DNA of 64,000 bases from contig CADCCQ010000009.1 in assembly GCA_902799955.1 (NCBI GenBank), positions 3,066 through 67,065 on the forward strand, given 5' to 3'. Below, one piece after another: positions 20,806 through 45,711 of the stretch; position 1 is the stretch's first letter, and each line of letters begins with the position of its first letter. Origin of the DNA: an uncultured bacterium (GTDB lineage: Bacteria > Verrucomicrobiota > Kiritimatiellia > RFP12 > UBA1067). Under the pieces are notes generated by a model. That model did not search any database and was not told the DNA's origin. It saw nothing but the letters and a program-made list of their open reading frames with translations. The position numbers and the translations under genes are program-made.

Positions 20806-21044
20806 TGGATTTGCTGCAAAGGCTGGATGAACTAGTCCAGAAGTCGGCGTCATTCCAGAAGATCATGGAAGACGGTGTTGTTGATGATGTCGAGGTTGAA
20901 GAACAGGCAAGACTTGTTGACGCAATGCTGTCTGATCTGGAACGGACGTTGTCGCCTGCAGATTTCGCTCGTGTGACGGAGTTCATGGCGGAGCTTTCCG
21001 TGCTGCAGGTGATTATGCGCTACAACCAAATGGGAGGGCGGTGA
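20805..21044 (+). CDS. Small acidic hypothetical protein (79 aa)
   Basis: The start overlaps the M48 stop (TAATG) and the next gene starts 1 nt after its stop. No motif was recognised. Confidence 0.45.
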   Translation: MDLLQRLDELVQKSASFQKIMEDGVVDDVEVEEQARLVDAMLSDLERTLSPADFARVTEFMAELSVLQVIMRYNQMGGR

Positions 21045-21045
21045 C

Positions 21046-21543
21046 ATGGCATTCACTTCGACAAAGGTATTCATGGTCCCGGCAAATCGTATTCCAGACA
21101 TGACTCGGATGTTGGAGGCGGCGCTTCGCCTGGATGGATATGAGACGCGCAGTGACTCGCTGCTGGGCGGCGGTATGGTCGTGTCAATCACAAAGGGGGG
21201 ATTGTTCAAGGCGATCATCGGGATGAAGACGGCGCTCAAGGTGGAACTGCGCGCGGACAACGGGAACGTACTTGCAAAGACTAGCGTAGGCATCTGGGGG
21301 CACCAGATCGTGCCTACGATGATTATGTGGCTTTGGTTTTGGCCAGTTCTCATCACACAGATATGGGGGTTGGTACAGCAGAACCATCTGGATGCGCAAG
21401 TGATGGAGATACTGGCCAAGGCGGCGGAAAAGGATACAACTACAATGGATGGTCAACCGGCGGATGCGCCTGCATGCTTCTGCTCCGAGTGCGGCAAGCC
21501 AGTAGCCGGCAACTTCTGCTCTAATTGCGGTGCAAAGCTGTGA
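21046..21543 (+). CDS. Hypothetical membrane-associated protein with C-terminal zinc ribbon
   Basis: A hydrophobic segment (IVPTMIMWLWFWPVLITQIWGLV) is present. The C-terminal CSECGKPVAGNFCSNCG is the same ribbon type as on the M48 protein. Confidence 0.5.
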   Translation: MAFTSTKVFMVPANRIPDMTRMLEAALRLDGYETRSDSLLGGGMVVSITKGGLFKAIIGMKTALKVELRADNGNVLAKTSVGIWGHQIVPTMIMWLWFWPVLITQIWGLVQQNHLDAQVMEILAKAAEKDTTTMDGQPADAPACFCSECGKPVAGNFCSNCGAKL

Positions 21544-29652: not shown

Positions 29653-29679
29653 TGGAGATCTACATAAAGGAGCACCATA

Positions 29680-32600
29680 ATGAAAAACGCCAAAACCCTC
29701 TTCCTGATCCCGTGCATTGCAATAGGCCAAGTGCTGGCTGGCACGTCGTTTCTCAACAACAACGCGGTGCTGTCGCAGGCGACGCGCGCGGCCGTGTCGG
29801 CAAACGGCGACAGCCACGCCATAGCGACGGCGGACCCCAATGCCGCGTCGGCCGTCCTGGACTGGACGAAGTTCAACATCGGCAGCGGACAGCAGATGAC
29901 CTTCAACGGCGGCGGAACGACGTTCTTCAACCTTGTGGATGGCGCGGCCGGCAAGTCGCAGATCGACGGCATCATCAACGGCACGGCGGGGAACGTGTGG
30001 GTAATCAACCCGGCGGGCGTGGCGTTCAGCTCCACGGCGCAGATTGACATCGGCGGGCTTTTCGCCGCGGCGGCGGGCAATATCTCGAACGCCGACGCCC
30101 TCCGCTCCGGTTCGGCGTTGCTTCCCGAGTTCTCGTCGTTCGGGGGGCTTGTGTCGTCTGATGCCGGCGCCACTTTCTCGGCCGATCAGGTCGCGTTCCT
30201 GGGGAAGTCTATCTCCTCCGTCGGTGATTTCGCGGGGGTGAATTCGTTGGTTGTTGGCGCGTCGAGCGGGACGATGACAGTTGACGATGTCGGAGGAGGG
30301 AAGGTGTCGGTCAACATTGGCGACTTTACAGCTGCAGACGCAGAGGTGTCGCTTGGAGATTTGGACGTCGGCGGTTCGCTGTCTGTGAAGTCGGCTGGTG
30401 CAATCGTTTCTACATCTCCCAACGCGTCATCGGCACTGGGCCGGCCGATGCTGCGCACTACTACTACGACAGGGTCGATTATCCAGGCCGGCGACATAGA
30501 TATGATGGCTTACGACAATCTGGAAGTTGACGGCAAGTTGCAGTCTACGGCGGGGAACGTGTCACTGCTTTCGTACGGGAATATCGACGTCAACTCCGAA
30601 GTGGATGCCTACGGCAGTGTTTCGGCTGGGGCGCTTGGCAACATCAACATCTCGGCAGATGTCACGGCTCGAGGCGGAGATTCCGGCATTGGCGGTGTAG
30701 AATTATATGCCTATAATGGCAGTGCCACTGTAAACGAGGGCTCGGCGGTCAATTCCGTTGGAACCGTGAATATCACCGCCGGAATAAGTGCAGGTGCGGA
30801 AGGCAACATAAAGGTTGATGGACTCGTCGAGTCGAAGACTGGAGACGTTGAGCTATATTCTGCGTATGGAAATCACTCAACTGGGGACATAGAGATTAAT
30901 GGAACGGTCAATGGCAATGGTGTCCGAATAGGAAGTGGATTGGCTGACATTGTATATTATGCAGAGACTCGGCAACATGAACCTATGCATGCTTCGTCGG
31001 GTAATGGGAACATAACTGTACGGGGGGCTGTGCAGGGGGTTTCGGATATAGCAATTAATACAAACGAAGGTGACATTAATGTTTGTGTAGGAGGCGAAAT
31101 CAAAACCACGGGGAATCATGCTGCGCTTGATATCTCGGCAGGAGACGGAGTAACCATTTCTGGCAATGTGATAGCGGAAAATTCTGGAGACATTGAAATC
31201 GCCTCCTCGCAAGGCATATTCGAGTATGAGGGTAAGGGCATCACAATTGCATCTACGGGTCGGGTGGACGCAGAAGGGGATTTGACTTTTTATTCGGGGC
31301 TGGATGCTGTCTTCTATTCTAATGGGGACTTGCTAGATTTTTGGGGCCTTGGATATGGTGGAGGTGGGATTGTTGTTGACGGAGTAGTCAAATCAAGAGG
31401 TAATATGAGTATTTATTCCGTAGAAGGTGTAACGGGGAAGGGCTTTTTGGATTCAGGAGCGAGTATATTGAAGGTAGACGGAGGAATGGGCGCTATTAAG
31501 TTCACTGGGCAGATCGCTTCAGGGAATACAACTTTTCTGAGTACAACCTATCTTGACTATGACATTGTCGGCGATGTCAGTGTTCCTAATAGCGATAATG
31601 ATTTTAAAGGGGTTGTAAGCGCGTCGGGGAATAACATCTCAATTGTGGACGGGAATTCGCTTGCATTGGGCAATGTTATTGCGTTTGGGGATGTATTTCT
31701 TCGCTCTGGTGAAGGCATACAAGTTATGGCCGGAACTGTGCTTGCAGAGGGGGATGTTACATTGGCGGCAGGTGGTTCTGTGCTTGAGAATGCCGCCGGA
31801 GTTGTAGAGGCAGGACGGAATCTGGTTGTCACGGCCGAGAATGGGAGAATAGGACTTCTTGGAAGTGTCTCTGCTAACGGGGATGCATCTTTCAATGCCG
31901 ATGGACGAGTTGTCGTTGTTTCGGAGAATGGACTTATATCGTTTGGAGGCATAACGGCAAGAGGTAGCGATGTCGATCTGACGGGGCGTGGTGATGTGAG
32001 TGTTGGAGATGTCGTGGCGACTAGTGGAAATGTCAGACTGTACTGGTCAGAGGGGAATGTTCACATTAAAGAGGGATCAACGGTCAAAACATTGGGAGAT
32101 TCAGCCTCCGTGAATGTTGGCATAGATGTTGGCATTGGATCTGGTGGATTGACAGGTAATGGCGACGTTATAGTGGATGGCAATGTGTCAGCAGAGGGAG
32201 ATGGTGGTCGTGTTAATCTTTTGGCAAGGAATGGTAATGTCGTCGTCAATGGGGGGGTGGATTCTTCTGGCGATATTTATATGATGGCTCATGGCGATGG
32301 CGGGGCTGAGGTCGGTCATGATGCTTTAGTCGCCAGTAGGGAAGGTAAGGTAACGATCAGTTCAGATTCAAAGGCAATGTTTATTGACGGCAAGATTGAG
32401 GGAGAGACAGGGGTTTGGCTGATGACATACTCAGGCGACATAGAAGTTGGCAAATCCGCAACACTTCATTCCAGAGGGCCGGGCGGGGGAATTAACGTTT
32501 ACGCGGCCATGGAAAAAGGAGGGCGTGGTAATGCGATTATTAAGGGTAATCTTATTGCAGATGGCAAGGACGGTTCGGTGGCTGTTGCCACTGCAGGTCA

Positions 32601-33945
32601 CAGCGGAGCTAGCGGGGATGTGATTATTGATGGTAGTTTGACAGGGGGTTCCGAAGTGTCAGTACATGGTGCGACGGGTGCGAATGCGACGAAAGGAAAC
32701 GTAACCATAAATGGATCTATTAAGGCAGGCAATCAAGTTCATGCAATTACGGGTAATGGTGATATAGTTGTAAGTGGAACGGGAACGATAAACGTAGAGG
32801 GAGAAGATGGCCTAGTTGTCATGGGTACGGGATTGCGTAGTGGGCAACATGGAGACATTAATATCGGTGGTTCGGTTTTCGCAAATGCGATTGGTGGGGA
32901 GGTCTATTTGGATGCGGGGAGTTCAGATCCCTTTTCCACAGGAGGAATCCACCTTGGGGGCTCTTGTAATATAATGGCCGGGTCTGGTGCATATTTGATT
33001 ACACATAATGGCAATCTCACTCAGAGCGGGGCGAACATTAATCCGCCTGCTAATGGATATGTCTCTGCTGTGTCACTTCATTCTGCTGTGACGGCCCCGA
33101 CTGTGAATTTAAAGGTTGACGGGTCTGTCGGCAATGGGAATTACGGTTTTGTAGCCGTTGACGGCAAGGTGTTTGGAAGTGTAGAAGGCGATGCTTCCAT
33201 TGCCGCTGCGAATGGGAAGCCATTTGTCGGGGGAGAACACATTGGCTCCAAGATTATAAACTTTGGGAAATCTGATATGGGGGAATATGGCACCATGGAC
33301 TTTGGTAGTGTCATTCTCGACTGGGGGAATATGAATGGCGATTCAACGGTTCAGGTGAGAGGCGGTCTTTCCATATACACTGCGTCAAATATTGAGCCGT
33401 ACGGGAATCTCCTTTCTGGAAGGGACATGACGGTCTCTGCGCGCTCTTTCGGCGATGTGAGCTATCTTCGTGCAGGCGGGACGCTGACAATCAACAATGT
33501 TGGGCGCCCAAAATATCCTCGCATCGCGTACTTCGAGTCACTTGATGGCAAGGAGCCCAAAATCAACAACCTCCCCAACGACATGGTGATATTCGTGGAC
33601 GGCCGGCTCGCCGGCGGCAACATCAACATCATGAACATGTTCGGCGCGAACGAGGCGTTCCTCGTCTCGACTCCGGAGCTGAAGTCGACGCAGGGCATCT
33701 TCGGGAATCCGCCGTTCCTCCACAGCGACCTTGACGTTGCGAACCCGATGGAGGTGAGCGCAATCGACTACCTGATCCAGGAGGTGCCCCGCCTTACTCT
33801 TTCCAGCGAGTTCCCGGCGGACGTCGACCAGAAGGTCGAGGCGAACGGCCTGAGCCTCAAGGACAGCTACTGGTTCGGACAGGAACGCGTGGCGAAGAAG
33901 CCGAGCGAGGCGACAGACGGCAAGGTCGCATCAGCAGAGGAGTAG
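29680..33945 (+). CDS. Filamentous-haemagglutinin-type TpsA exoprotein (1421 aa)
   Basis: N-terminal TPS domain: LDWTKFNIGSGQQMTFNGGGTTFFNLVDG...IDGIINGTAGNVWVINPAGVAFSSTAQIDIGGLFAAA. This is followed by a long Gly/Asn/Val-rich beta-helix-like region. No C-terminal toxin motif was recognised. Confidence 0.8.
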   Translation: MKNAKTLFLIPCIAIGQVLAGTSFLNNNAVLSQATRAAVSANGDSHAIATADPNAASAVLDWTKFNIGSGQQMTFNGGGTTFFNLVDGAAGKSQIDGIINGTAGNVWVINPAGVAFSSTAQIDIGGLFAAAAGNISNADALRSGSALLPEFSSFGGLVSSDAGATFSADQVAFLGKSISSVGDFAGVNSLVVGASSGTMTVDDVGGGKVSVNIGDFTAADAEVSLGDLDVGGSLSVKSAGAIVSTSPNASSALGRPMLRTTTTTGSIIQAGDIDMMAYDNLEVDGKLQSTAGNVSLLSYGNIDVNSEVDAYGSVSAGALGNINISADVTARGGDSGIGGVELYAYNGSATVNEGSAVNSVGTVNITAGISAGAEGNIKVDGLVESKTGDVELYSAYGNHSTGDIEINGTVNGNGVRIGSGLADIVYYAETRQHEPMHASSGNGNITVRGAVQGVSDIAINTNEGDINVCVGGEIKTTGNHAALDISAGDGVTISGNVIAENSGDIEIASSQGIFEYEGKGITIASTGRVDAEGDLTFYSGLDAVFYSNGDLLDFWGLGYGGGGIVVDGVVKSRGNMSIYSVEGVTGKGFLDSGASILKVDGGMGAIKFTGQIASGNTTFLSTTYLDYDIVGDVSVPNSDNDFKGVVSASGNNISIVDGNSLALGNVIAFGDVFLRSGEGIQVMAGTVLAEGDVTLAAGGSVLENAAGVVEAGRNLVVTAENGRIGLLGSVSANGDASFNADGRVVVVSENGLISFGGITARGSDVDLTGRGDVSVGDVVATSGNVRLYWSEGNVHIKEGSTVKTLGDSASVNVGIDVGIGSGGLTGNGDVIVDGNVSAEGDGGRVNLLARNGNVVVNGGVDSSGDIYMMAHGDGGAEVGHDALVASREGKVTISSDSKAMFIDGKIEGETGVWLMTYSGDIEVGKSATLHSRGPGGGINVYAAMEKGGRGNAIIKGNLIADGKDGSVAVATAGHSGASGDVIIDGSLTGGSEVSVHGATGANATKGNVTINGSIKAGNQVHAITGNGDIVVSGTGTINVEGEDGLVVMGTGLRSGQHGDINIGGSVFANAIGGEVYLDAGSSDPFSTGGIHLGGSCNIMAGSGAYLITHNGNLTQSGANINPPANGYVSAVSLHSAVTAPTVNLKVDGSVGNGNYGFVAVDGKVFGSVEGDASIAAANGKPFVGGEHIGSKIINFGKSDMGEYGTMDFGSVILDWGNMNGDSTVQVRGGLSIYTASNIEPYGNLLSGRDMTVSARSFGDVSYLRAGGTLTINNVGRPKYPRIAYFESLDGKEPKINNLPNDMVIFVDGRLAGGNINIMNMFGANEAFLVSTPELKSTQGIFGNPPFLHSDLDVANPMEVSAIDYLIQEVPRLTLSSEFPADVDQKVEANGLSLKDSYWFGQERVAKKPSEATDGKVASAEE

Positions 33946-33957
33946 GCGTGGCGGGCA

Positions 33958-36900
33958 ATGGGTAGTGTCGACACAGACATTCTGGGCGGCTTCAGGCTGC
34001 TGAAAGAGCTTGGCTCGGGTGGCGAAGCCAAGGTCTACAAGGCTGTATGTGTGCGCAATATGCATAAGATTGTGCCCAAGGGCAAGGTTGTCGCGCTCAA
34101 GATTGTATACGAGCACGGTGCGGATGCTGATGGCCATTGGCAGAAGTTGCAGACACGCGTCAAGGAGTTGATGCGTCTCGACAATCCGTATGTTGTCCGC
34201 TATCTGGGATGTTTTCGCGAACGCGGACAAGATGGCGAAAAACATGTGGTGGTACAGGAGTTCCTTGAGGGTCGGACACTTAAAGAGCAGCTTGCGCTAT
34301 CCCGGCTGGGACTTGACGTTGATGAAGGCAGGCGTGTGGTGAATCAGGTGCTTGAAGGACTCGACTATACCACCGGCCAAGGCATATATCATCGTGACAT
34401 AAAACCGGCGAATGTCTTTCTTTGCGCGGACGGCGGAGTCAAACTGATAGATTTCGGGGTCGCCAAGCAGGTGGCAGCCAATGTGACCGTGACCGTGTCG
34501 GACAATATTCGCGGAACATGGAACTACATGGCACCAGAGTTCACGTCCCCGTCCTTTAGCGGAGATGTGAGAAGCGATGTCTTTTCCGTGGGCGTGTTGT
34601 TGCACGAGATACTTGTCGGGACCTTGCCTTATGCCGACTTGAACAGCCTCGGCATGTCTGGCTATTATTCCCGCTGGTCGCAGCAGGCCGCCCCGGATGT
34701 CCCTGCAATCAGAGTCGATCCGATGGCGGAACGTCTCTTGATTGGCGTGGAGAACATCCTGTCCGTGGCTCTGGCACGGAATCCTGCCGCTCGATATGCT
34801 TCGTTTAGGGATTTTCGCAGGGCGTTTGACAGGGTGGAGCCAGTCTGCACAAAGGGTGGGGGGCATACGTATCAACGTTTGAAATTCGTCGGCAGGGGTG
34901 GATTTGGCGAGGTGTTCAAGGCACGATGCCAGGAGACAGGCGAGTTGGTGGCCATCAAGAAGCTTCTCAAACCGGAATATGCCAGCCGGTTCCGGCGCGA
35001 GGCCAAGATTATGCGTCGGCTAGACGATCCTTGCTTTGTCAAGTTCATTGATTTCTTCGAATTGCGCGACGGCGCGTTCCTCGTCATGCGCTTTCTTGAG
35101 GGCATGCCAGGCGGCTCGCTGCACGACGCAATCATACGGGCTGGCGAGAAATGCAGAAATGACGACAACAAAGACTGCGGTCTGCCCAAAGCGCTTGTCC
35201 TTGCCGCCTTCGAGCGCTATGCACGCGGACTTGCCGTGTTGCACGGACGGGGGATTGTCCATCGCGACATAAAGCCAAGCAATCTCTACTACCCGGAAGG
35301 ACATCCAGATTGCGTTGCAATCATGGACTTTGGCATAGTTCGAGCCAAGGACACCACGTTTACATACGGGAACGTGCCATGTACGCCAGACTACGCGCCG
35401 CCGGAAATCGTGATTTCCGGTGATCGCGGAGAGCCGGCGATGGACATCTTTTCGCTGGGGCTTTGCATGTACGAGGCGCTGACAGGTGGGCGAAAGTCGT
35501 ATCCAACGCTTGCTTCCGGCACGGCTGGATACAACGCATTATGTCAGCGCGCCAAGACGATGCAGGAACCGAATTTCGACGATTGCCGGGTTCGGGCCGA
35601 CAGTGAGCTTCTCGAATTGCTTCAGCGGATGACGGCTCCCGACAAATCCGTGCGCATGAATGACGCCAACGAGGTCGCCCGGGAGCTCCGCAGGCTCTTC
35701 TACCGTCCAAGTACGGCCCCGGATTGCCCGACGACGGCTGTGTTCGGTTCGTCCCCTGATATTTCCACGCCCATTGATGCCGCGAAATTGCTGGATTGGT
35801 TCAAGGCATGGAGGGAGAAGCACCCCGTTGAAAAGCCCACGCCGTTACCTGAGCCGTGGCCACATCCTGGTCCGCGAAAGACTGCATGGAAGAGTGTGAT
35901 AGTGGTAGCGCTAGTCGTTGCTTCCCTGGGCGTGGCTACATGGCGGGTCGCGAGATTACGATACGGGAAAGACGATTTTGTGCATCCTGAAACTAGGCAG
36001 GATACTGGCAGTTTGACCGAAACAAATCCAGTACAGAAGGTCGTGGCAGAGGTGCCTACGGTTAAACCTGTCCCCGATGACTACATCAAATTGAAGCATC
36101 AGGCGTTTAAAAACGATTTCGACATCCGCATGAGGGACGAGCCTGTGACAAACCGTCGGGACCGTATTGCAAGTGCGGAAAGGCTGCTTCGAAAGGCGAT
36201 TGTCGAGGATCATCTCTGCACCGAAGGGGAGGCTGCGCGTTTTCGTGCGGAAATCGAAGCCGCCAGGAAGAGGGTCGTGGGCGTCTTGAAGAACGGCAGC
36301 GGTCTGGAGCTCGTTGTGGACGGCAGAAAACTTCCCGCAGGTGTTGAACATACGTTCTCCTTCGACGACGGAGAGCCAATAAAACGTACAATGCGGCTGT
36401 TTGGCCACGACGAACGTCCGCTGCCTTCCAACCTTGACGAGAAGGTCATGGTTGTCACGACAAACGATTTCAATGTGTCTACGGTCAAAGTGGAGTTGCC
36501 GGAATCGCTTGAAGGGGGCGTTACGTGTTTCTTCAACGGGAAGCAAGTAGGCGGGGCCGGCTTGTCGCTTACGCCAGGATCGTATGAATGCGTTTACCGG
36601 AGAGAAGGTTATGAAGAGCAAAGGATTGCCTTTGACGTTTTGTTGGGAACGGGCAGATCCATTCCCGAACCAGATCATTGGAAGGCAAAACCCGTAGATG
36701 TCGAATTGCCCGCTTTTGGCAAGGATGTTGTTTGTTCGGTTGATGGCAAACCGTCATCGGAGGTGAAAAGGCTTATGCCAGGTGAACACGCGGTAGAGTA
36801 TAGGCGAAAGGGGTATTTTAATCAGACGATTCCATTCGTGGCAAGATTGTCCGAGCCTGTTTCCGTGCCGTTGCCAGACAGGGAATGGCGCGTGAGGCCC

Positions 36901-37638
36901 GTGCCTGTGGCGGTGCCGGAGCTGGAGCGTGGCGTCTGGTGTGCTATAGACGGGACGAACGTCGCATCCAAGTCTTCCGTTGAATTGATGCCGGGCAAAC
37001 ACGCGCTTGAGTACGAGAGGTACGGATATGTGCGGCAGGGAACCAACTTTGTCGTCAAGGTTGGCGAGGAGAAGGTGGAAGTGCGCGGGCCTTGTCCATG
37101 GGAGATTGCAAAGGTAAGGGTTTCCGTGCCGAAACTGGAACGGGGTGTCGAATGTAGGATCGACGGCAAGAGCGTGGCAGAGGAAATTGACCTCGTCCCG
37201 GGCGGGTATTCATACGAGTATGTTCGGACAGGATTTAAGACGCAGGCCGATCGATTCGTAGTGATGGCAAATCACCCGATGAATCTGCCAGAACCGGGAG
37301 AATGGGTCATGGTGCCCAGTCCAAAAGCAGTGCCGTCAAGTCCCGATGTCCTGTCGCCGTCGTACAAGGAGGCACTGGAACGGTATGCATTTCAGGATTA
37401 TGGTGGTGCACTTGAGAAGTTCCACGCGGCGCTCAAGGAGGACTGCCGCCCTCGTGCGGATGACATGGATAAAATCGAGGATGCTTTCAAGAAGCGCCTT
37501 GAAGAGATAAATGGCCTGATAAATCGGACCAAGGCCGACATTTCGATTGGTCGGGACCCCAAACGCAGCCTGGATGACTTGGACAATGATCGAAAGACCC
37601 TCATCAAGTGGTATAATGAGCTAAAGGCAGCTCGGTAA
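33958..37638 (+). CDS. Membrane-spanning tandem Ser/Thr protein kinase (two Hanks-type kinase domains, one TM helix, PEGA-like repeats)
   Basis: Kinase 1: LGSGGEAKV, VALK, HRDIKPAN, DFGVAK, YMAPE. Kinase 2: GRGGFGEV, VAIKK, HRDIKPSN, DFGIVR, YAPPE. The TM helix is AWKSVIVVALVVASLGVATW. Four ~70-aa repeats and a helical tail follow. Confidence 0.8.
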   Translation: MGSVDTDILGGFRLLKELGSGGEAKVYKAVCVRNMHKIVPKGKVVALKIVYEHGADADGHWQKLQTRVKELMRLDNPYVVRYLGCFRERGQDGEKHVVVQEFLEGRTLKEQLALSRLGLDVDEGRRVVNQVLEGLDYTTGQGIYHRDIKPANVFLCADGGVKLIDFGVAKQVAANVTVTVSDNIRGTWNYMAPEFTSPSFSGDVRSDVFSVGVLLHEILVGTLPYADLNSLGMSGYYSRWSQQAAPDVPAIRVDPMAERLLIGVENILSVALARNPAARYASFRDFRRAFDRVEPVCTKGGGHTYQRLKFVGRGGFGEVFKARCQETGELVAIKKLLKPEYASRFRREAKIMRRLDDPCFVKFIDFFELRDGAFLVMRFLEGMPGGSLHDAIIRAGEKCRNDDNKDCGLPKALVLAAFERYARGLAVLHGRGIVHRDIKPSNLYYPEGHPDCVAIMDFGIVRAKDTTFTYGNVPCTPDYAPPEIVISGDRGEPAMDIFSLGLCMYEALTGGRKSYPTLASGTAGYNALCQRAKTMQEPNFDDCRVRADSELLELLQRMTAPDKSVRMNDANEVARELRRLFYRPSTAPDCPTTAVFGSSPDISTPIDAAKLLDWFKAWREKHPVEKPTPLPEPWPHPGPRKTAWKSVIVVALVVASLGVATWRVARLRYGKDDFVHPETRQDTGSLTETNPVQKVVAEVPTVKPVPDDYIKLKHQAFKNDFDIRMRDEPVTNRRDRIASAERLLRKAIVEDHLCTEGEAARFRAEIEAARKRVVGVLKNGSGLELVVDGRKLPAGVEHTFSFDDGEPIKRTMRLFGHDERPLPSNLDEKVMVVTTNDFNVSTVKVELPESLEGGVTCFFNGKQVGGAGLSLTPGSYECVYRREGYEEQRIAFDVLLGTGRSIPEPDHWKAKPVDVELPAFGKDVVCSVDGKPSSEVKRLMPGEHAVEYRRKGYFNQTIPFVARLSEPVSVPLPDREWRVRPVPVAVPELERGVWCAIDGTNVASKSSVELMPGKHALEYERYGYVRQGTNFVVKVGEEKVEVRGPCPWEIAKVRVSVPKLERGVECRIDGKSVAEEIDLVPGGYSYEYVRTGFKTQADRFVVMANHPMNLPEPGEWVMVPSPKAVPSSPDVLSPSYKEALERYAFQDYGGALEKFHAALKEDCRPRADDMDKIEDAFKKRLEEINGLINRTKADISIGRDPKRSLDDLDNDRKTLIKWYNELKAAR
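36484..37323 (+). repeat. Four tandem ~70-codon PEGA-like repeats inside the kinase gene
   Basis: Repeat starts are at 36484 (VKVELPES), 36694 (VDVELPAF), 36901 (VPVAVPEL) and 37114 (VRVSVPKL). Each contains a conserved C..(D/N)GK...L.PG.(Y/H)..(V/E)Y.R.G(Y/F) core. Confidence 0.7.
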
Positions 37639-37652
37639 GGAGATGTGCTGTC

Positions 37653-38828
37653 ATGGGCGAGAATCTTGAAGCTGCAAAATACGATGTATTCATCAGTTAC
37701 TCTAGACGGGATATGGGAAGTGTGCAGCCTGTTGTCGACCGGCTGAGGGCAGAGGGGTATAGTTGCTGGATGGACGTGAACGGCATTGAAAGTGGTGATG
37801 AATTCCGTTCAAAACTGGTTGATGCCATAGAGCGCTCCTGCATTGTGGTGTTCTTCTCGTCTGCTGATTCCAATGTGTCAAAATGGACCAGGCGGGAGCT
37901 TTCGGTTGCCGATGAATGTCACAAGCCGATAATTCCCGTCAGGCTTGACCACGCACCATATTCCAATGCCATCAAGCTTATTCTGACGGGCGTGGACTAC
38001 ATTGATTTCCAGGCGGTGGAATTGCGCATGGCGGCAACTGAGAGGTTGCTCAGAAGTGTCAAGGAGAAGACGGAAGATGTCTTGTCGGGACATACGGGGA
38101 TGAAGGGTTTGACCTTGCCCGGTGGTGTGTCAATGCGTTTTAGGTGGTGTCCGCCCGGGACGTTTATGATGGGGAGTCCGCAGACAGAGGAGGGGCATGC
38201 CCAAGATGAGATTCTACATCGCGTCACGCTTACAAAAGGCTTCTGGATGGGGGAGACCCCTGTGACGCAGAGGCAGTGGGAAGCCGTCATGGGTGACAAC
38301 CCTTCTGTTTGCCGGGGCGCGGATCATCCCGTTGAAGGGGTCTCGTGGCATGACTGCATGGATTTCATCAGAAAGGTGAACGAGCAGCAGAAATGCGCAC
38401 TGCGTCTGCCGACGGAGGCGGAATGGGAATATGCCTGTCGTGCCGAGACGAACGGACCATTTGGCGGGAATGGGGTCTTGTGCGAGATGGGGTGGTATAA
38501 TGACGACAGCTACGGCGAAATGCAACCATCGCGGTCGTCCCATCCTGTCAAGAAGAAAGAGCCTAACAAATGGGGCCTCTACGATATGCATGGGAATGTC
38601 TGGGAATGGTGCAGCGACTGGTACGGGGCGTATTCTGCGGAATCGGTCACAGACCCCATTGGGCCGCCCGAAGGGAAGCTGAAGATACGTCGCGGCGGTT
38701 CGTGGCAAGACGAGGCGATGGCATGTCGCTCCGCCTACCGTTTAGTGTTTTCGCCCGAGTCGCGGCACAGCCTCCTGGGTTTCCGTGTCGCATTCGATGC
38801 TGACGCATACGAGGAGAAGGAGAAATGA
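37653..38828 (+). CDS. TIR domain fused to an FGE-sulfatase (SUMF1/PvdO-type) domain
   Basis: TIR motifs: YDVFISYSRRD ... SKWTRRELSVA (conserved Glu). FGE-type motifs: FMMGSP, HRVTLTKGFWMGETPVTQRQWEAVMG, PVEGVSWHDCMDFI, RLPTEAEWEYACR, HGNVWEWCSDWY, RRGGSW...CRSAYR...GFRVAF. There is no signal peptide or TM helix. Confidence 0.8.
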   Translation: MGENLEAAKYDVFISYSRRDMGSVQPVVDRLRAEGYSCWMDVNGIESGDEFRSKLVDAIERSCIVVFFSSADSNVSKWTRRELSVADECHKPIIPVRLDHAPYSNAIKLILTGVDYIDFQAVELRMAATERLLRSVKEKTEDVLSGHTGMKGLTLPGGVSMRFRWCPPGTFMMGSPQTEEGHAQDEILHRVTLTKGFWMGETPVTQRQWEAVMGDNPSVCRGADHPVEGVSWHDCMDFIRKVNEQQKCALRLPTEAEWEYACRAETNGPFGGNGVLCEMGWYNDDSYGEMQPSRSSHPVKKKEPNKWGLYDMHGNVWEWCSDWYGAYSAESVTDPIGPPEGKLKIRRGGSWQDEAMACRSAYRLVFSPESRHSLLGFRVAFDADAYEEKEK

Positions 38829-39136
38829 TGAAATGCAATGAGACAGACAAAGAGTGTTGTCGTCCGCAATCGACGGATACGGGCGATGTCGCATTGCCTG
38901 AATCGCTCATGCCGCTCATCGAGGCGTTGGCGGAGAACGTCCATGACACATGGGCGAAGGGACGAATGGACGAGGGCTGGACATACGGCCCCGTCCGCGA
39001 CGACGCAAGGAAACAGCATCCTTGCCTTGTCCCCTACGCCGACCTTCCCGAATCCGAGAAGGCATACGACCGTGCCACGGCAATTTCAACACTGAAGTTC
39101 ATCTGCAAGATGGGATACGAACTTTGTCTTAGATGA
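38825..39136 (+). CDS. Stand-alone RyR (ryanodine-receptor repeat) domain protein, 103 aa
   Basis: LIEALAENVHDTWAKGRMDEGWTYGPVRDDARKQHPCLVPYADLPESEKAYDRATA matches the RyR-domain consensus almost position by position. The ATGA overlap with the TIR-FGE stop suggests translational coupling. Confidence 0.75.
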   Translation: MMKCNETDKECCRPQSTDTGDVALPESLMPLIEALAENVHDTWAKGRMDEGWTYGPVRDDARKQHPCLVPYADLPESEKAYDRATAISTLKFICKMGYELCLR

Positions 39137-39171
39137 GTAATATGAATTCAAAGGAGAACAGATAACTCGCC

Positions 39172-39510
39172 ATGAAAATGATTACACTTAATGTTACGCG
39201 TGATAAATCACTTGTCGGAGCGGGAATGTCCTATCGCATTTTCATCAATGACAAGGAGGTTGCCAAACTAAGAATCGGCAAGACTTTCTCCTGCCAGTTG
39301 CCAGGCGAACAGTTTACATTGCGCGCTTCAATGGTTGGGAACGCATTGTCATTTCATAAAATCGGGAAGGAGGTCGCAGTATTCCCAGAATACAGTAAGT
39401 CGGGCGTGATTAACTGTAAATTGAGAACACGACAAAATTGGCTGGGTTTTCTTACGCTTGGGATGTTTCAGGCGATTGGCAGAACGGAAATTGAGGTGTT
39501 GTATCAATGA
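39172..39510 (+). CDS. Hypothetical protein (112 aa)
   Basis: Good RBS (aaaggaga) and a beta-rich sequence (YRIFINDKEVAKLRIGKTFSCQLPGEQFTL). No motif was recognised with confidence. Confidence 0.45.
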   Translation: MKMITLNVTRDKSLVGAGMSYRIFINDKEVAKLRIGKTFSCQLPGEQFTLRASMVGNALSFHKIGKEVAVFPEYSKSGVINCKLRTRQNWLGFLTLGMFQAIGRTEIEVLYQ

Positions 39511-39520
39511 GGATTGAACG

Positions 39521-41086
39521 ATGAAGTATTTGGTGATGTTTCTGTCCTGGGCGTTTGGCGTACTGACGGTTCTTTTCCTTGTGTTCATGTCAATGACGCT
39601 TCTGGACGTAGGATCGGCAGACATACCGATAGTATTGGAGAATACAGATGAATACGCCCGTGTCAAATGGGAATTGGAGGGACGTGATTTTGGGCAACCA
39701 ATCATGCTGGTCGTTAGTTATTTTCTGTTCGCCGTTACACATTCGCTTCATCATAGGCTACGAAAAAAGAAATGCGACACGCTCAACGTCGATGCCATAG
39801 AAGGGCCCTTCGTGCTTTATCTGCGCTCCTTTATCGCGGACAGGATAACATCCAGACGGATTTCTCTGTTTGCAGACATCCGTTCGGAGGAAGAGACTCT
39901 AGTTGATGTTCTTTCTGAAATTGCCCCGGTCTATGCAATCGGGGACCCCAAGGACAAGAAAATGCCCGTGGGAGCTTCGCGGATATATGTGGACGACGGG
40001 CACTGGAAGACCACTGTGGAGAAGTTGTCCCAAAAAGCCGTCGTTGTTGTTTTACGACTTGGGGAAACCGACAGTTTCTGGTGGGAAGTGGAAATGGCCG
40101 CACAGAAAGTCCCTCTTGAGAAACTGTTGTTTGTCGTGCCAGAATGCAAGACGTTCAGTAATGTCGCAACGCTATATAAGGTACTACTCGATAATAAAAT
40201 TGACATAAAATCGGCAGGAATCAGCATTGACAGGAAATCGAGGGGGTCAATTTCCAGTTTCATGTTCTTTGGTCGTGACGGAACTCCTGTCGCCAAATCG
40301 GTTAAAATTCCCAGATTTACGCAAATCGTTGTTTCATATGAAAACATACTGAGAAATGCGCTGGCCGAGTTCCGTGCCAAGTACGGATTGCATGCCAGAT
40401 GGGGTGCTGCCATAAGATGGGCGCAATTGCTCCAGATAGTTGTGGTTGGCAGTATGTTTCTTACATTTGTGTCCTTGGGCGTTAGAGATTTCACCAGATT
40501 GAACTGCCAAATGCCGTATGAACTGCTGGAGAAATGCGTTGAGTATCCAGAGTTTACGTCTAAATATTCCAATGATATAAATGGTTCATGCCTAATTTGT
40601 GCGATTGATGAATCTGTAAAAGGTTATTTATGGCTTGCCGACGAGAAGTATAAATTTATGTTATGCACTGAAGCAAAAGCTATTCGGGCAATGAGTCAAG
40701 GCGAACTTAGACAATTGTCAAAGGCACAAAAGAACTCTTTGCTAATGATTAAGAAATACGTTCCTGAATGCTATGATGAGTATGTCGGCATCCTAGCGGA
40801 GGCGGCGATTCTGTCAATTCAACGCCCTAAAGAGACAGAGGATCTAATAAAAGCATATAAGCGCAAGATTGATATGCTTCCGCAATGGATGATAGATTTT
40901 GAGATGAGTCTGCATGATGAATGTGACAACATGCTGATGCGGCTTTCCGACGAAGTTGTCAAACACATTGACGAAAGCAATATTGTCGAAACATTAAAGA
41001 TACTTCATAGTCAAACCATAAATGTTGGTAATACCTCAACTCAAGGGGAAAGTCAACCGTTGGATGAGGATTCGGCGGATATGTGA
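39521..41086 (+). CDS. Hypothetical three-TM membrane protein, possible divergent TIR-like/flavodoxin-fold cytoplasmic domain
   Basis: Two N-terminal TM helices, a basic stretch (HHRLRKKK) and a third TM helix around AIRWAQLLQIVVVGSMFLTFV. The intervening domain shows the strand-helix pattern FVLYLRSF ... PVYAIGDP ... AVVVVLRLGETDSFWWEVEMA. Confidence 0.45.
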   Translation: MKYLVMFLSWAFGVLTVLFLVFMSMTLLDVGSADIPIVLENTDEYARVKWELEGRDFGQPIMLVVSYFLFAVTHSLHHRLRKKKCDTLNVDAIEGPFVLYLRSFIADRITSRRISLFADIRSEEETLVDVLSEIAPVYAIGDPKDKKMPVGASRIYVDDGHWKTTVEKLSQKAVVVVLRLGETDSFWWEVEMAAQKVPLEKLLFVVPECKTFSNVATLYKVLLDNKIDIKSAGISIDRKSRGSISSFMFFGRDGTPVAKSVKIPRFTQIVVSYENILRNALAEFRAKYGLHARWGAAIRWAQLLQIVVVGSMFLTFVSLGVRDFTRLNCQMPYELLEKCVEYPEFTSKYSNDINGSCLICAIDESVKGYLWLADEKYKFMLCTEAKAIRAMSQGELRQLSKAQKNSLLMIKKYVPECYDEYVGILAEAAILSIQRPKETEDLIKAYKRKIDMLPQWMIDFEMSLHDECDNMLMRLSDEVVKHIDESNIVETLKILHSQTINVGNTSTQGESQPLDEDSADM

Positions 41087-41096
41087 CAATCTTGAA

Positions 41097-41234
41097 ATGA
41101 AAAGGGAACCAGGGATGGAGAGATCAATCATCAAGACTCATGTATTCGTCAGCTACGCTCGTAGTGATGTGACGGAAGTGGCTAACCTGCTTCAGCGGAG
41201 ACTTTGGGCGATATTTCCACGGGGAAGGGGTTGA
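41097..41234 (+). pseudogene. 45-codon fragment resembling the N-terminus of a TIR-domain gene
   Basis: Hand translation gives MKREPGMERSIIKTHVFVSYARSDVTEVANLLQRRLWAIFPRGRG*. A TIR betaA-type motif (VFVSYARSD) is present, but the ORF stops after 45 codons. Confidence 0.4.
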
Positions 41235-41238
41235 ATAA

Positions 41239-41376
41239 ATGACACCTAAACGAATCATCCTTGTGCGGCATGTGCGGTCGGCGGCGAATGACGATCCGAC
41301 CGTGTACAGCCGAGTGCCCGACTACAAGATTGAGTCTGTGGATGAGGGGCGCGAACAGTCTGGAGATCTTGCATGA
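41239..41376 (+). pseudogene. 45-codon fragment resembling the N-terminus of a histidine-phosphatase-superfamily gene (copy 1)
   Basis: Hand translation gives MTPKRIILVRHVRSAANDDPTVYSRVPDYKIESVDEGREQSGDLA*. The family RHG motif is degraded to RHV. A paralogous copy lies at 42989..43126. Confidence 0.4.
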
Positions 41377-41510
41377 ATGTTGTCGACAGAATGGCGCGGT
41401 TGGCGATGATCGCGCATAACGGCGTTAACCGAAAGGGACCAGGCAATAAGCCGTATATTGTTCATCCTCATGCCGTTGTGGTGATGTTGAAGGATATGCC
41501 GGTGCGATAA
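41373..41510 (+). pseudogene. 45-codon fragment resembling the N-terminus of an HD-domain (RelA/SpoT-type (p)ppGpp hydrolase-like) gene
   Basis: Hand translation gives MNVVDRMARLAMIAHNGVNRKGPGNKPYIVHPHAVVVMLKDMPVR*. Compare the canonical AHxGQxRKxxGxPYIxHPLxVAxIL. The ORF stops before the HD dyad. Its ATGA overlaps the preceding fragment. Confidence 0.4.
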
Positions 41511-41571
41511 TGAAGTCATGGCGATTTGTCCAAGAAAACGTTTGTAAGTTCAAACAGGAAAAGAACAACTG

Positions 41572-41718
41572 ATGGAATATGGCATCTACATCTCATATCG
41601 CCGCGAGGGGACTCTATCGGTTTTGCAATTGCCTCTTAAGTTAGTGACGCCCTATGCGGAATATATTCGGCATGAGAGGTTCTGTTGCGAGAAGCGCGGA
41701 GTGTGTTCCGCATTTTAG
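41572..41718 (+). pseudogene. 48-codon fragment resembling the N-terminus of the TIR paralogs at 43895/45712
   Basis: Hand translation gives MEYGIYISYRREGTLSVLQLPLKLVTPYAEYIRHERFCCEKRGVCSAF*. IYISYRREG matches the IFISYRREGG of the downstream TIR genes. Confidence 0.35.
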
Positions 41719-41735
41719 TTGCCGCATTTTAGTTG
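41708..41735. repeat. Perfect 14-bp tandem duplication (ccgcattttagttg x2)
   Basis: Read directly from the sequence: 41708-41721 is identical to 41722-41735. It lies about 50 nt upstream of the ATPase start. Confidence 0.9.
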
Positions 41736-41786
41736 TGTTTTGGTACGAATTATGGTATACTTGTGTGCAAAATAGAGGATTTGAAC

Positions 41787-42992
41787 ATGATAGATCGTCC
41801 TTATGGACTTAAGTGGCTTTGGCAATGGAAAGACCAGGAGCCGATAAAAGTCGTCACCGGCATACGCCGGTGCGGCAAATCAACATTGCTTTCAATGTTT
41901 CAGGGGCAATTGCGCGAAGACGGCATCAACGCCGATCAGATTGTCGCCATCAACTTTGAGCATCCGGATTTCATGGAACTTGACAATTCTGTCGCCGTAT
42001 GGAAATACTTGAAACCGAAAATTGTTCAGGGACGAAATACATACGTCTTTCTTGATGAAATTCAACGTGTAAGGGACTTTGAAAAGGTGGTTGACGGACT
42101 TTTTGTGCTGCCTGACGTTGATGTGTACATAACGGGGTCCAATGCCTATCTTCTGTCTGGGGAATTGGCTACATATCTGTCCGGTCGCTATGTCGCGCTC
42201 CATTTGACGCCGCTGTCTTTCCGCGAGTACTATGATGGCGTTGCCTCGTCCGAGTCGCCGGAACGTGCATATCGCGACTATCTTGCATTCAGTTCGTTCC
42301 CCCACAATCGCGCATGGGACAAGGAGCCGGGGCTTGTCGACGATTACATGGAGGGCATCTTAAACACGGTTCTACGAAAGGACGTCATAAACAGAAATGC
42401 ATTTCGCAATCCTGTTGCGCTTGATGCCGTGGCACGATACGTCTTCGGCAACATCGGGAATCTCACGAGCATGCGGAATATCGCGACAGTCCTGAAGTCC
42501 GAAGGTGTTTCAATTGATGCTTCTTCAGTCGAGGACTATGTCTCCGCCCTATGTGGGGCGTATCTAGCCTACAAGGCAGTCCCTAAAGATCTGCGCGGCA
42601 GGGAATTGCTCAAATCGGGCGCAAAATACTATGTCGTGGACATGGGATTGCGTCGGTTTATTCTCGGAAGCCGTGCATTCGACATGGGGCGCGTACTTGA
42701 GAATGTCATATATCTTGAACTTGCCAGGCGTCATCAAGAAGTCTATGTCGGCAGGGTGGATGGACGCGAGGTCGATTTTGTCACGCGGGACGGAGGTGAT
42801 GTCAGATACTGGCAGGTGGCGGAGACATTACGTGGTGAAGGTGTCCGCGACAGGGAGTTCGCTCCGCTAAAGGCGATTGCCGACCATTGTCCCAAGACGA
42901 TTCTATCCCTTGATCTTGACCCCGTTGGCTACGACATCGGCATCAAGACTATGAATGCGCTTGATTTTCTGCTGGAGAAGGGAGAGGAATGA
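41787..42992 (+). CDS. AAA_14/DUF4143-family ATPase
   Basis: N-terminus MIDRPYGLKWLWQWKDQEPIKVVTGIRRCGKSTLL (Walker A) and Walker B-like VFLDEIQRV. An RBS (gagga) lies 9 nt upstream of 41787. The track ORF starts earlier, at 41733. Confidence 0.7.
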   Translation: MIDRPYGLKWLWQWKDQEPIKVVTGIRRCGKSTLLSMFQGQLREDGINADQIVAINFEHPDFMELDNSVAVWKYLKPKIVQGRNTYVFLDEIQRVRDFEKVVDGLFVLPDVDVYITGSNAYLLSGELATYLSGRYVALHLTPLSFREYYDGVASSESPERAYRDYLAFSSFPHNRAWDKEPGLVDDYMEGILNTVLRKDVINRNAFRNPVALDAVARYVFGNIGNLTSMRNIATVLKSEGVSIDASSVEDYVSALCGAYLAYKAVPKDLRGRELLKSGAKYYVVDMGLRRFILGSRAFDMGRVLENVIYLELARRHQEVYVGRVDGREVDFVTRDGGDVRYWQVAETLRGEGVRDREFAPLKAIADHCPKTILSLDLDPVGYDIGIKTMNALDFLLEKGEE

Positions 42993-43126
42993 CGCTGAAG
43001 CAAACAATTCTTGTACGGTATGGTCGGTTGGTGGCGAATGACGATCCGACCATGTATAGCCGTATCCCCGACTACAAGATCGAGCCTGTCAAACAGGGTT
43101 CGTGGCCTGGAGGGTATGAGACATGA
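42989..43126 (+). pseudogene. 45-codon histidine-phosphatase-like N-terminal fragment (copy 2)
   Basis: Hand translation gives MTLKQTILVRYGRLVANDDPTMYSRIPDYKIEPVKQGSWPGGYET*. It is the same length as the copy at 41239 and has the same ATGA junction to the next ORF (MNAVG vs MNVVD). RHG is degraded to RYG. Confidence 0.4.
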
Positions 43127-43869
43127 ATGCTGTCGGTGATAATGGCCGTATGAAATATGATGTCTTCATTTCGGCGAAAAGAGAGGATTACAATCTTGCC
43201 AAGGGCGTTTTCAGGTTTTTGGTGGACAATGGATTGTCTGTTTTCTTGGCAAATGCGGAATTGAGGAAGATTGGAATGTCTCAATATGCAGAAGCTATAG
43301 ACATGGCCTTGGATGCAGCAAAGCACATGATTGTCGTTGCGTCGTGCATAGACCACATTCGCTCGTCTTATGTGCATTATGAATGGTCGGTGTTCAGTAA
43401 TGACCTGAAGAGTGGGTATAGGTCAGGTAATTTGCTAACCATTCTGACCGATGAAGTGCATTTGAGGGAGTTGCCGCCCAGTTTGAGACATCAGCAATCA
43501 TATTGCATTGATACATATCAGCAAGAGATACTAGGATATTTGGGCAAGGGTGAAGATGAAGTCTTTCCGGTAAAACAAAGGCTGACAAGAAATGGAAACA
43601 AACAGGCGAGGCGTGCTATTAATTTAATGTTGATAGTGGGGGTGTTAATTGGTTTTTGTAGTGGAATTATAGTGGAGATTTGGCGATCGAGATTTCCATC
43701 TTCTCAGGTCACAAGTGTGCCTACTGATTTATTGAAAGCGAAAGAAGGGGAAACCAGGCGTATGGAAGCGATTTATGAAAGGGCGCAGAAGCAAAATGTG
43801 GAAAACAAACTTGACAAGGCATTGCAACCACTAGTGCCCGTTGTTGATCGACATGAAATGACAGAGTGA
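43123..43869 (+). CDS. TIR-domain protein with one C-terminal-proximal TM helix
   Basis: TIR motifs: KYDVFISAKREDYNLAKGVFRFL ... MIVVAS ... SSYVHYEWSVFSN (conserved Glu). The TM helix is AINLMLIVGVLIGFCSGIIVEIW, preceded by basic residues. Confidence 0.7.
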   Translation: MNAVGDNGRMKYDVFISAKREDYNLAKGVFRFLVDNGLSVFLANAELRKIGMSQYAEAIDMALDAAKHMIVVASCIDHIRSSYVHYEWSVFSNDLKSGYRSGNLLTILTDEVHLRELPPSLRHQQSYCIDTYQQEILGYLGKGEDEVFPVKQRLTRNGNKQARRAINLMLIVGVLIGFCSGIIVEIWRSRFPSSQVTSVPTDLLKAKEGETRRMEAIYERAQKQNVENKLDKALQPLVPVVDRHEMTE

Positions 43870-43894
43870 AAAATGCCAATGTGGAAAGGGAAAT

Positions 43895-44281
43895 ATGAAT
43901 AAGTCACAGCAATACGACATCTTCATTTCATACCGTCGCGAGGGCGGGTATGACACGGCGCAACTGCTGTATGACAGGCTGACGCAGATGCGCTATCGCG
44001 TATCGTTCGACCTGGAGACATTGCGAGGCGGAAAGTTCAACACGCAACTTTACAAGCGCATTGAGCAATGCTCGGACGTGCTTGTCGTCATGAGCAGGGA
44101 TTCTCTGAACCTTCGCGAGAACCCGGAGGACGACTGGTTCCGACTTGAGATTGCCCATGCGCTGAAGCACAAGAAGAACATCGTCCCAGTGTTCCTAAGG
44201 GACTTCAAGTTCCCGCAGAAAGGGGAGCTGCCCGAAGACATAGCCGACCTGGTGAACTATAGCATTTCGACAGTGTACTGA
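43895..44281 (+). CDS. TIR-domain ORF (128 aa); 5' part of a TIR-TM-PDZ-like gene split by a 35-nt insertion
   Basis: YDIFISYRREGGYDTAQLLYDRL ... DDWFRLEIAHAL. It is nearly identical in protein sequence to residues 8-127 of the 45712 paralog and then diverges into SISTVY*. Confidence 0.7.
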   Translation: MNKSQQYDIFISYRREGGYDTAQLLYDRLTQMRYRVSFDLETLRGGKFNTQLYKRIEQCSDVLVVMSRDSLNLRENPEDDWFRLEIAHALKHKKNIVPVFLRDFKFPQKGELPEDIADLVNYSISTVY

Positions 44282-44331
44282 AGCGAATATGCAGGAACTT
44301 CAAGGCGAAGCCCCATCGGCACAAATGGCCG

Positions 44332-45678: not shown

Positions 45679-45711
45679 ACAGACGGAATAAAGACATTGG
45701 AGGGTGAACAC

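Follow-up and report, generated by a model that had tools for sequence, protein, structure and literature searches.

Thoeris systems, reportedly treated by Doron (2018), Ofir (2021) and van den Berg (2024), are the described systems to which the locus reported here comes closest. Their layout consists of one conserved effector and several variable TIR genes, and transmembrane (TM) effectors are a frequent feature of the 29 types that have been proposed (Yirmiya 2025 preprint, 10.64898/2025.12.03.692087). Phage proteins of the RyR domain (PF02026), named RyDEP, were found to hydrolyse the ribose-ribose bond of the cyclic ADP-ribose (cADPR) isomers 2'cADPR and 3'cADPR, or to sequester both, with H75 and D117 as the catalytic dyad and W78 and H100 involved in ligand binding (Lopez Rivera et al. 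2026 preprint, PMC13232231). The FGE-sulfatase domain ('FGS', with a C-type lectin fold) has been proposed as an invader-sensing module fused to effectors that include TIR (Kaur et al. 2021, PMC8195603). The present analysis deals with a window of 64,000 nucleotides (assembly GCA_902799955.1, contig CADCCQ010000009.1, positions 3,066 to 67,065) from a rumen Kiritimatiellae metagenome-assembled genome (MAG), and with a chromosomal island in it that carries several TIR genes, a stand-alone RyR gene and a pair of unannotated genes, here called p112 and p521. An earlier note on this DNA had taken five consecutive ORFs, encoding a tandem kinase, a TIR-FGE fusion, RyR, p112 and p521 (Table 1), for one operon-like signalling or defence array. 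The conserved core was found to be p112-p521, and the region is tentatively read as an island gained by horizontal transfer that encodes a multi-TIR system akin to Thoeris, in which p112-p521 would be a new membrane module and RyR a regulator of the TIR signal supplied by the host itself. This reading is preferred here although it is given somewhat less than an even chance.

The p112-p521 pair, the TIR genes and the RyR protein

The five ORFs lie exactly where the earlier note had placed them, with intergenic gaps of 14, -4, 35 and 10 nt and with 12 nt between the TpsA ORF, which ends at 33945, and the kinase, and its calls of two kinase domains, TIR-FGE and RyR were borne out by Pfam, which returned Pkinase in two stretches (E 1.8e-78), TIR_2 (1.1e-23) together with FGE-sulfatase (2.6e-47), and RyR. 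The conservation of the set was evaluated in 20 distinct loci with a full-length p521 homologue, comprising that of this MAG and those of gut and rumen Bacteroidales of several genera, which were annotated with BLAST, an iterated TIR hidden Markov model (HMM) and Pfam and are numbered L001 onwards where they have to be told apart; a metagenome scan for p521 loci contributed at least three of the full-length ones. A p112 gene was present immediately upstream of p521 in all 20 loci (37-95% identity), TIR genes were found on the same strand within 10 kb of the pair in 16 of them, often two to six per locus, and a TIR-FGE fusion beside the pair and a RyR gene near it were found in eight loci each. 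The kinase had a homologue in one locus of the 20, that of the window itself. Since p112-p521 is present throughout, with TIR genes that differ in type and number and with RyR in eight of the 20, the conserved unit is the pair and not the five-gene array, so that the expectation of a gene set conserved elsewhere held for p112-p521, for TIR and in part for RyR, and failed for the kinase. In one Prevotella genome, the order is RyR - x - x - p112 - p521 - TIR-FGE - TIR - x - TIR-NPHP3_N-TPR - TIR, with identities to the window proteins of 49%, 58% and 52% for RyR, p112 and p521, respectively.

Domains related to NAD and ADP-ribose (ADPR) cluster with the core pair, which speaks for the preferred reading. 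A Macro gene lies directly upstream of p112 in L032, a locus that also has DUF4062 (a TIR-like NADase according to a recent description) and a SIR2_2-TIR fusion; a SIR2 gene lies beside the pair in L014, and His_Phos_1 and HD_4 genes follow the p521 homologue in L004, with remnants of both in the window. Genes for PrsW, for M48+Zn-ribbon proteases and for small Zn-ribbon proteins recur beside the pair, further neighbours being MscS-like channels and BACON, LRR and Sel1 proteins, and defence-type genes (PDC-S01, HSDR_N, RhuM, CHAT and nSTAND1) are interspersed, a member of the PDC-S01 family occurring near the pair in L032. Additionally, a conserved protein of 737-842 aa was observed to precede RyR-p112-p521 in L034 (5892-10258) and L006 (2704-9521); the two copies are 28% identical to each other, and the L006 copy has weak TrkA_N and RyR matches.

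Neither p112 nor p521 gave a Pfam match even at E<=10, and neither had a match in PADLOC, in NCBIfam or among PDB sequences. The AlphaFold2 model of p112 (pLDDT 85) is a small beta-sandwich with a conserved Gly-rich hydrophobic loop at residues 89-103. Its top Foldseek matches, to the membrane-binding domain 4 of cholesterol-dependent cytolysins, were not significant (E 0.02-0.05, TM-score 0.5-0.57), and a weak match to the PHROG 890 'lipoprotein' family was also obtained (1.2e-7). The p521 model (41-sequence alignment, pLDDT 83) presents long hydrophobic helices at residues 2-27, 43-81 and 300-328, in agreement with the three TM helices predicted earlier, and these are arranged as TM1-TM2, a Rossmann-like alpha/beta domain (residues ~95-290), TM3 and a C-terminal domain made up entirely of helices (330-500). 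Hydropathy and the positive-inside rule would place the alpha/beta domain in the cytoplasm and make the C-terminal domain extracytoplasmic. The central domain carries the motifs YLRSFxxD, EEE, AIGxPxD, GAxRxY and LRxGxT..WWE, and its invariant Arg, Glu and Trp residues suggest a possible active site. When the model was compared with PDB by Foldseek, no match was obtained at E<0.001, the best ones being generic Rossmann folds (MthK RCK, a methyltransferase and CARF), and a PDB profile search with the p521 alignment gave no match at E<=10. A divergent TIR identity of the central domain was considered on account of TIR-like motifs seen by eye and was rejected, with an hhalign probability of 0.2% against a 47-sequence TIR alignment and no TIR among the Foldseek matches.

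More than 150 homologues of p521 were found, mostly 40-60% identical. They come mainly from Bacteroidales of gut and ruminant metagenomes, Prevotella and Alistipes among them. The central domain itself belongs to a much larger family, with 7223 clusters at 50% identity (3448 of them at E<=1e-10) in a profile search of 1.8 billion representatives, most members being TM-anchored solo proteins of ~300 aa that share the signature YLRSFxxD..EEE..AIGxPGE..GAxRxY..W..LRxGxT..WWE. No Pfam family was found for it in ten tested members or, by a wider count, in 17, and distant relatives gave nothing for it even at E<=10. The segment that defines the family corresponds to p521 residues ~95-215 (window 39803-40165; family members P0214-P0323). 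In one relative, P0307, the domain is joined to FGE-sulfatase, as TIR is in the window, and two distant relatives that were inspected occur as solo genes, in contexts unrelated to this one. In the p521 variants of L016-L018, the C-terminal domain is swapped, whereas the central domain and what precedes it are retained. A second, divergent central-domain protein (E 9e-9) was observed in L028 (4176-5531), between TIR-FGE and other TIR genes. No p521 relatives were found on viral contigs.

Pfam TIR_2 was detected on four window proteins, and the Glu of the SKWTRRELSV motif of TIR-FGE, which the earlier note had singled out, was invariant in an alignment of 34 distinct related TIR domains (34/34). 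TIR-FGE has no TM helix and is predicted to be a cytoplasmic sensor plus NAD-processing enzyme. Its FGE-sulfatase match (PF03781) scored 162 bits against a cut-off of 23.3. True formylglycine-generating enzymes generally carry two Cys residues in the region after RGGSW, where TIR-FGE, on direct reading of the sequence, has QDEAMACRSAYR with a single Cys. The island continues beyond p521 with further TIR genes. TIR248 keeps the catalytic Glu, and TIR631 is a tandem paralogue of the broken TIR gene before it, the two sharing direct repeats D1-D3 of 78-91% nucleotide identity, which is consistent with recent duplication and diversification at 43895-47592. The break at 43895-45678 is a 22-bp deletion; the sequence is otherwise identical to L001 16243-18048, and the gene is intact in the metagenomic contigs L001 and L027, with 601 aa. 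Either the gene is a pseudogene here or the assembly is at fault. Among the 42 TIR proteins of the loci, 22 begin with the TIR domain, cross the membrane once by a helix at ~150-220 and end in a C-terminal part that varies (e.g., L003 2443-6453 and L029 12732-18177), TIR248 and TIR631 included, an architecture with a receptor-like topology. Some carry RHS repeats or an FGE domain past the TM helix.

The RyR protein of the window (PF02026, 113.3 bits against a cut-off of 27.4) is encoded by a gene that overlaps the stop of TIR-FGE by 4 nt. Its closest solved relative is PDB 3NRT, a 'putative ryanodine receptor' of B. thetaiotaomicron (E 8.7e-33), and animal RyR repeats match it at E ~1e-20. Residues H40, W43, H65 and D82 follow the spacing +3, +25 and +42, identical to that of H75, W78, H100 and D117 of RyDEP, and the RyR proteins of related loci conserve the counterparts of these four residues. 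Judged by this spacing, the two sets would be equivalent, and the window RyR is predicted to be a binder or glycosidase of TIR-made cADPR isomers. In the window and in L003, L015 and L034, the RyR gene directly abuts p112 or a TIR gene, and the phage RyDEP precedent (PMC13232231) makes a role as reader or regulator of TIR products plausible, by analogy, as had been proposed earlier in the form of a signal receptor or effector. Viral contigs of IMG/VR commonly carry small RyR proteins (93-127 aa) of 51-62% identity, with a TIR neighbour in one of 80 viral RyR loci and with no p521 there. By this measure, the RyR genes of the island are closely related to anti-Thoeris proteins of phages, yet they stand amid the TIR genes of the host. 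In the sole TIR-linked viral case (IMG/VR, L051 5345-7754), a 698-aa TIR protein is encoded 20 nt after RyR, and this contig may be a misclassified host island.

Weighing of the readings

In Thoeris loci, a single conserved partner is surrounded by several diverse TIR genes that are catalytically competent. The same layout is seen here, and a Thoeris-like system is therefore favoured for the region. According to the mechanism proposed, the TIR proteins would act as sensor-synthases, namely TIR-FGE, with its lectin-like FGE domain as the sensor, and the downstream TIR-TM-ectodomain paralogues, and once triggered they would turn NAD+ into a cyclic ADP-ribose-type signal. The signal would be received by p112-p521 through the cytoplasmic domain of p521, the pair serving as membrane effector, and RyR would bind or hydrolyse it and so set a threshold or reset the response. 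Host ring nucleases of type III CRISPR systems (such as Crn1 and Csx3) degrade cyclic oligoadenylate and reset signalling, and RyR would be a host-encoded counterpart of these enzymes.

The following points weigh against a Thoeris-like system. The 20 loci are phylogenetically non-independent, and in four of them (L010, L011, L033 and L034) the core pair has no detectable TIR gene within 10 kb. Gene order and content around the pair are highly variable, as in any defence island, and many of the neighbouring TIR proteins carry elaborate modules of their own (NPHP3_N/TPR, SIR2, RHS), as sensor-effectors that are self-contained typically do. The cytoplasmic domain of p521 has no detectable relation to SLOG, Macro, SAVED, CARF, DUF2270 or DUF6650, and its solo relatives and the P0307 fusion to FGE-sulfatase mean that the domain fits an autonomous output or enzymatic role as well as that of a receiver.

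In the main rival, the genes are only co-localised: autonomous NAD+-depleting TIR-X proteins would be the sensor-effectors, and p112-p521, RyR, AAA_14/DUF4143 and the kinase would be unrelated genes travelling together in the island. The differences in composition and order between loci are as expected from it, as are the interspersed genes of defence type; in L033, p112-p521 is on its own, with housekeeping genes on either side, and in L034 a four-gene set with RyR-p112-p521 lies between housekeeping genes with no TIR near; and the TIR fusions to NPHP3_N/TPR, SIR2_2, RHS and FGE could each be a complete system. Nevertheless, the linkage of TIR genes to the pair in 16 loci, on the same strand and with tight spacing, extends across genera and two phyla, TIR-FGE and RyR overlap in the window, and RyR, a domain biochemically specific for TIR products, is found beside p112 in several loci. 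Simple co-localisation is possible, though on the whole unlikely.

A more far-reaching reading holds that gut and rumen bacteria possess a membrane TIR pathway with TM-anchored TIR receptors, variable ectodomains and cyclic ADP-ribose messengers, in which the very widespread p521 domain would be either the dedicated receiver or a new output domain that processes NAD or nucleotides and can take the place of TIR, and in which RyR, as a glycosidase or sponge of the host, would tune the signal. This is regarded as rather doubtful. If it were true, the link between cADPR and RyR domains in animal calcium signalling would be found inside a bacterial TIR pathway, and the source of the phage RyDEP anti-defence genes would be identified.

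Still less probable is a membrane receptor network that responds to envelope or extracellular cues and has no part in phage defence. In such a network, p521 and the TIR-TM-ectodomain proteins would be parallel receptors, the central domain of p521 would play the part of TIR, as an output or enzyme, and a local NAD/ADPR signal would be tuned by RyR, Macro, SIR2 and His_Phos. The shared architecture of the 22 TIR-TM proteins, the swapped C-terminal domain of L016-L018, the occurrence of FGE-sulfatase fusions for both TIR and the central domain, the invariant Arg, Glu and Trp, and neighbours such as PrsW, the M48 membrane proteases, MscS-like channels, BACON, LRR and Sel1 all agree with it. On the other side, the central domain has no known fold or family, the topology derives only from hydropathy and the positive-inside rule, and neighbours of defence type are present as well.

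The array of five as originally conceived, with the kinase supplying the input through its periplasmic repeats, TIR-FGE the output, and RyR or the two uncharacterised proteins a receptor or effector, is very improbable. The tight spacing on one strand, the lack of any terminator-like site on the + strand outside coding sequence within 33958-41086 and the similar GC (0.55) and GC3 (0.61-0.64) of the kinase, TIR-FGE and RyR genes argue for it, and the kinase may be co-transcribed with the TIR-FGE array. The kinase, however, has no homologue in any of the other 19 loci with the core pair, so that its proposed role as input has no comparative backing and it was rejected as a component; it is a lineage-specific neighbour, and not part of the TIR system. 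It is linked as tightly to TpsBA (12 nt) as to TIR-FGE, and because it starts 12 nt past the TpsA stop it may belong to the TpsBA transcription unit. A promoter-like site was also found just 5' of TIR-FGE, at 37590-37617. Both kinase domains retain VA[LI]K, HRDIKPxN and DFG (K48/HRD145/DFG165 and K334/HRD435/DFG457), and a single hydrophobic helix (641-667) and four tandem repeats of ~70 aa (843-1122) follow, so that the architecture described beforehand was recovered except for the PEGA identity of the repeats. No Pfam match to PEGA (PF08308) was obtained at E<=0.1 over residues 641-1226, the best match of the repeats being CarboxypepD_reg below threshold (E 0.0065), and the label 'PEGA-like' reflects only the pattern seen in the sequence. 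An identity as the MADS MAD6 or PD-T4-6 defence kinase was likewise rejected, since NCBIfam antiphage_MADS6 scored 218 bits against a cut-off of 460, the PADLOC matches were restricted to the generic kinase core, and no MADS partner was seen.

Least probable of all, and barely credible, is that RyR is an anti-Thoeris gene on a mobile element, as in phages, and unrelated to the adjoining host TIR genes: its viral kin and the fact that the sole experimentally characterised members are phage immune-evasion proteins point that way, but the window RyR does not qualify as a phage-encoded evasion gene, given its place in a chromosomal island in which neither tRNA genes nor att-like repeats were found, the lack of phage structural genes among the ORFs scanned, the absence of the neighbouring p521 from viral contigs, and the recurrence of RyR in chromosomal TIR arrays across genera.

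The island and other genes of the window

The genes from the kinase to TIR631 have GC3 values of 0.44-0.69 (0.73 for the short TIR128 fragment), compared with ~0.9 for core genes, which indicates that the island was acquired horizontally. Proteins more than 90% identical to those encoded here have been deposited under Kiritimatiellae bacterium MBQ61402xx. No tRNA gene was found in the island, nor were att-like long direct repeats flanking it, beyond those due to gene duplications. In addition to the features of the earlier note, the TIR genes at 43123-47592, the AAA_14/DUF4143 gene and the TIR, His_Phos and HD fragments at 41115-41631 were recognised (Table 1), so that the system, which had been thought to be confined to 33958-41086, extends to the TIR genes at 43.1-47.6 kb. 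A direct repeat, D4, of 111 nt and 77% identity (41238-41348 and 42988-43098) represents two His_Phos N-terminal fragments, and because these flank the AAA_14/DUF4143 gene, they suggest that it was inserted there. This gene is probably a separate one of defence type. A second low-GC patch at 19852-21543 (GC3 0.59-0.66 against ~0.9 for core genes) contains two genes, one for an M48 peptidase + Zn-ribbon protein and one for a Zn-ribbon protein, that are 48% and 39-42% identical to genes of L036 and L032 beside p112-p521-PrsW-TIR. By this homology to neighbours of the core pair, the island and the patch at 19.8-21.5 kb share gene content and draw on one pool of island genes, which is divided here over 18 kb.

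Table 1. Features of the island and of the second low-GC patch, in window coordinates
Feature	Position	Strand	Length (aa)	Basis
Tandem Hanks-type Ser/Thr kinase, one TM helix, four beta-sandwich repeats	33958-37638	+	1226	Pfam Pkinase x2, motifs
TIR-FGE: TIR (residues 6-122, catalytic Glu82) + FGE-sulfatase/C-type-lectin-like domain (residues 166-380)	37653-38828	+	391	Pfam
Stand-alone RyR (Repeat12-type)	38825-39136	+	103	Pfam RyR 6.2e-33
p112, unannotated all-beta protein, immediately upstream of p521	39172-39510	+	112	Conserved in loci
p521, unannotated 3-TM protein	39521-41086	+	521	AlphaFold2
TIR N-terminal fragment	41115-41234	+		Sequence reading; TIR HMM match among the fragments
His_Phos_1 fragment	41239-41361	+		90% over 41 aa to intact L004 gene (tblastn)
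HD_4 fragment	41373-41498	+		83% over 42 aa to intact L004 gene (tblastn)
Second TIR fragment	41566-41631	+		Sequence reading
AAA_14/DUF4143 ATPase, PADLOC candidate PDC-S01	41733-42992	+		Pfam; PADLOC 1.6e-135
TIR248: TIR, one TM helix (164-188), short C-terminal tail	43123-43869	+		Pfam TIR_2 9.2e-8, TIR HMM 6e-28
Broken TIR gene: 128-aa TIR ORF (43895-44281) + 448-aa ORF (44332-45678)	43895-45678	+		Pfam TIR_2 1.1e-13
TIR631: TIR, TM helix (138-159), ~470-aa C-terminal region	45697-47592	+		Pfam TIR_2 2.1e-14
M48 peptidase + Zn-ribbon gene	19852-20805	+		Pfam; second low-GC patch
Zn-ribbon protein gene	21046-21543	+		Pfam; second low-GC patch

Directly upstream of the kinase lies a two-partner secretion pair (27769-33945) of TpsB (ShlB/Omp85) and the 1421-aa TpsA. 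In a further low-GC patch at 60-62 kb, a 476-aa protein (60396-61823) has a C-terminus that, by eye, resembles a DUF1016/YhcG-type PD-(D/E)XK nuclease, and PDB searches with the ORFs of 60.4-63.2 kb gave no matches. The PADLOC matches PDC-S02 (1e-104), PD_DExK and RT_UG29 (1.9e-51) come from single ORFs outside the island.

Comparison with known systems

When the five proteins were searched against PADLOC (2023), NCBIfam (2026) and Pfam, matches were obtained at the level of domains and none to a system or effector model, as the earlier note had anticipated for the TIR-centred set. Its statement that the partner genes of known TIR systems are missing also stood: SIR2, SLOG, Macro, CD-NTase, pAgo, SAVED and STAND were not detected on the remaining ORFs of at least 170 aa, among the 25 PADLOC families listed out of 29. 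Beside the TIR gene, no Thoeris effector of a described class (SIR2-SLOG, TM-Macro, SLOG, caspase-like, DUF2270, DUF6650, SLATT, CMP hydrolase, TIR, ion channel or HIT hydrolase) was found, p112 and p521 having no match in Pfam, PADLOC or NCBIfam. An unverified putative effector class of the Thoeris survey, '3TM', may overlap p521. No mention of RyR-TIR operons, FGE fusions or p112/p521 was found in the Thoeris survey preprint (10.64898/2025.12.03.692087) or in the RyDEP preprint (PMC13232231).

If the Thoeris-like reading is true, p112 and p521 would be a new conserved membrane module among the partners of TIR signalling, and, within the literature searched, RyR would be the first host-encoded member placed to regulate its own TIR signal, those characterised so far being phage counter-defence proteins only. 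It would also offer a handle on a very large domain family that has no Pfam model, and much of the TIR signalling of gut Bacteroidales may prove to be membrane-anchored and receptor-like. A soluble protein of 103 aa would also allow a direct test of the evolutionary link that has been proposed between RyR Repeat12 domains and molecules of the cADPR type.

Although the gene combination had been thought to match no known kind, its logic is that of Thoeris, with variable TIR genes and one conserved partner, and the closest types are type III, with several TIR genes and one SLOG effector, and types II, VI, VII and X, with TM effectors. As in Thoeris, TIR genes that are catalytically competent by their conserved Glu, and often several and diverse, lie by one conserved membrane partner, this linkage being seen in 16 of the 20 loci, and the context is horizontally mobile and resembles a defence island. 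Unlike in Thoeris, the partner is a two-gene pair outside the known effector families of Pfam, PADLOC and NCBIfam, the island TIR proteins, in place of the small cytoplasmic ThsB, are in many cases large and in about half of cases anchored by a TM helix and furnished with additional domains, a RyR gene is embedded in the locus, and p112-p521 sometimes occurs without TIR. The FGS sensor fusions (Kaur et al. 2021, PMC8195603) resemble TIR-FGE in joining a TIR effector to a domain of the FGE-sulfatase type and in having diversified paralogues per genome. In contrast to the FGS conflict systems, the window gene has no visible neighbour that is a STAND NTPase, an EAD/Death-like adaptor or a diversity-generating retroelement, and PMC8195603 describes no link of such fusions to p112-p521 and RyR. 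The likeness between RyR and the ring nucleases is a functional analogy only, in that both would remove a second messenger made by the same host; fold and ligand are unrelated. With phage RyDEP, the window RyR shares the Pfam domain, the stand-alone form of ~100 aa and the four residues at identical spacing. It differs from RyDEP in being chromosomal, among host TIR genes and abutting p112-p521, and in this setting it would regulate signals made by its own host rather than evade host immunity.

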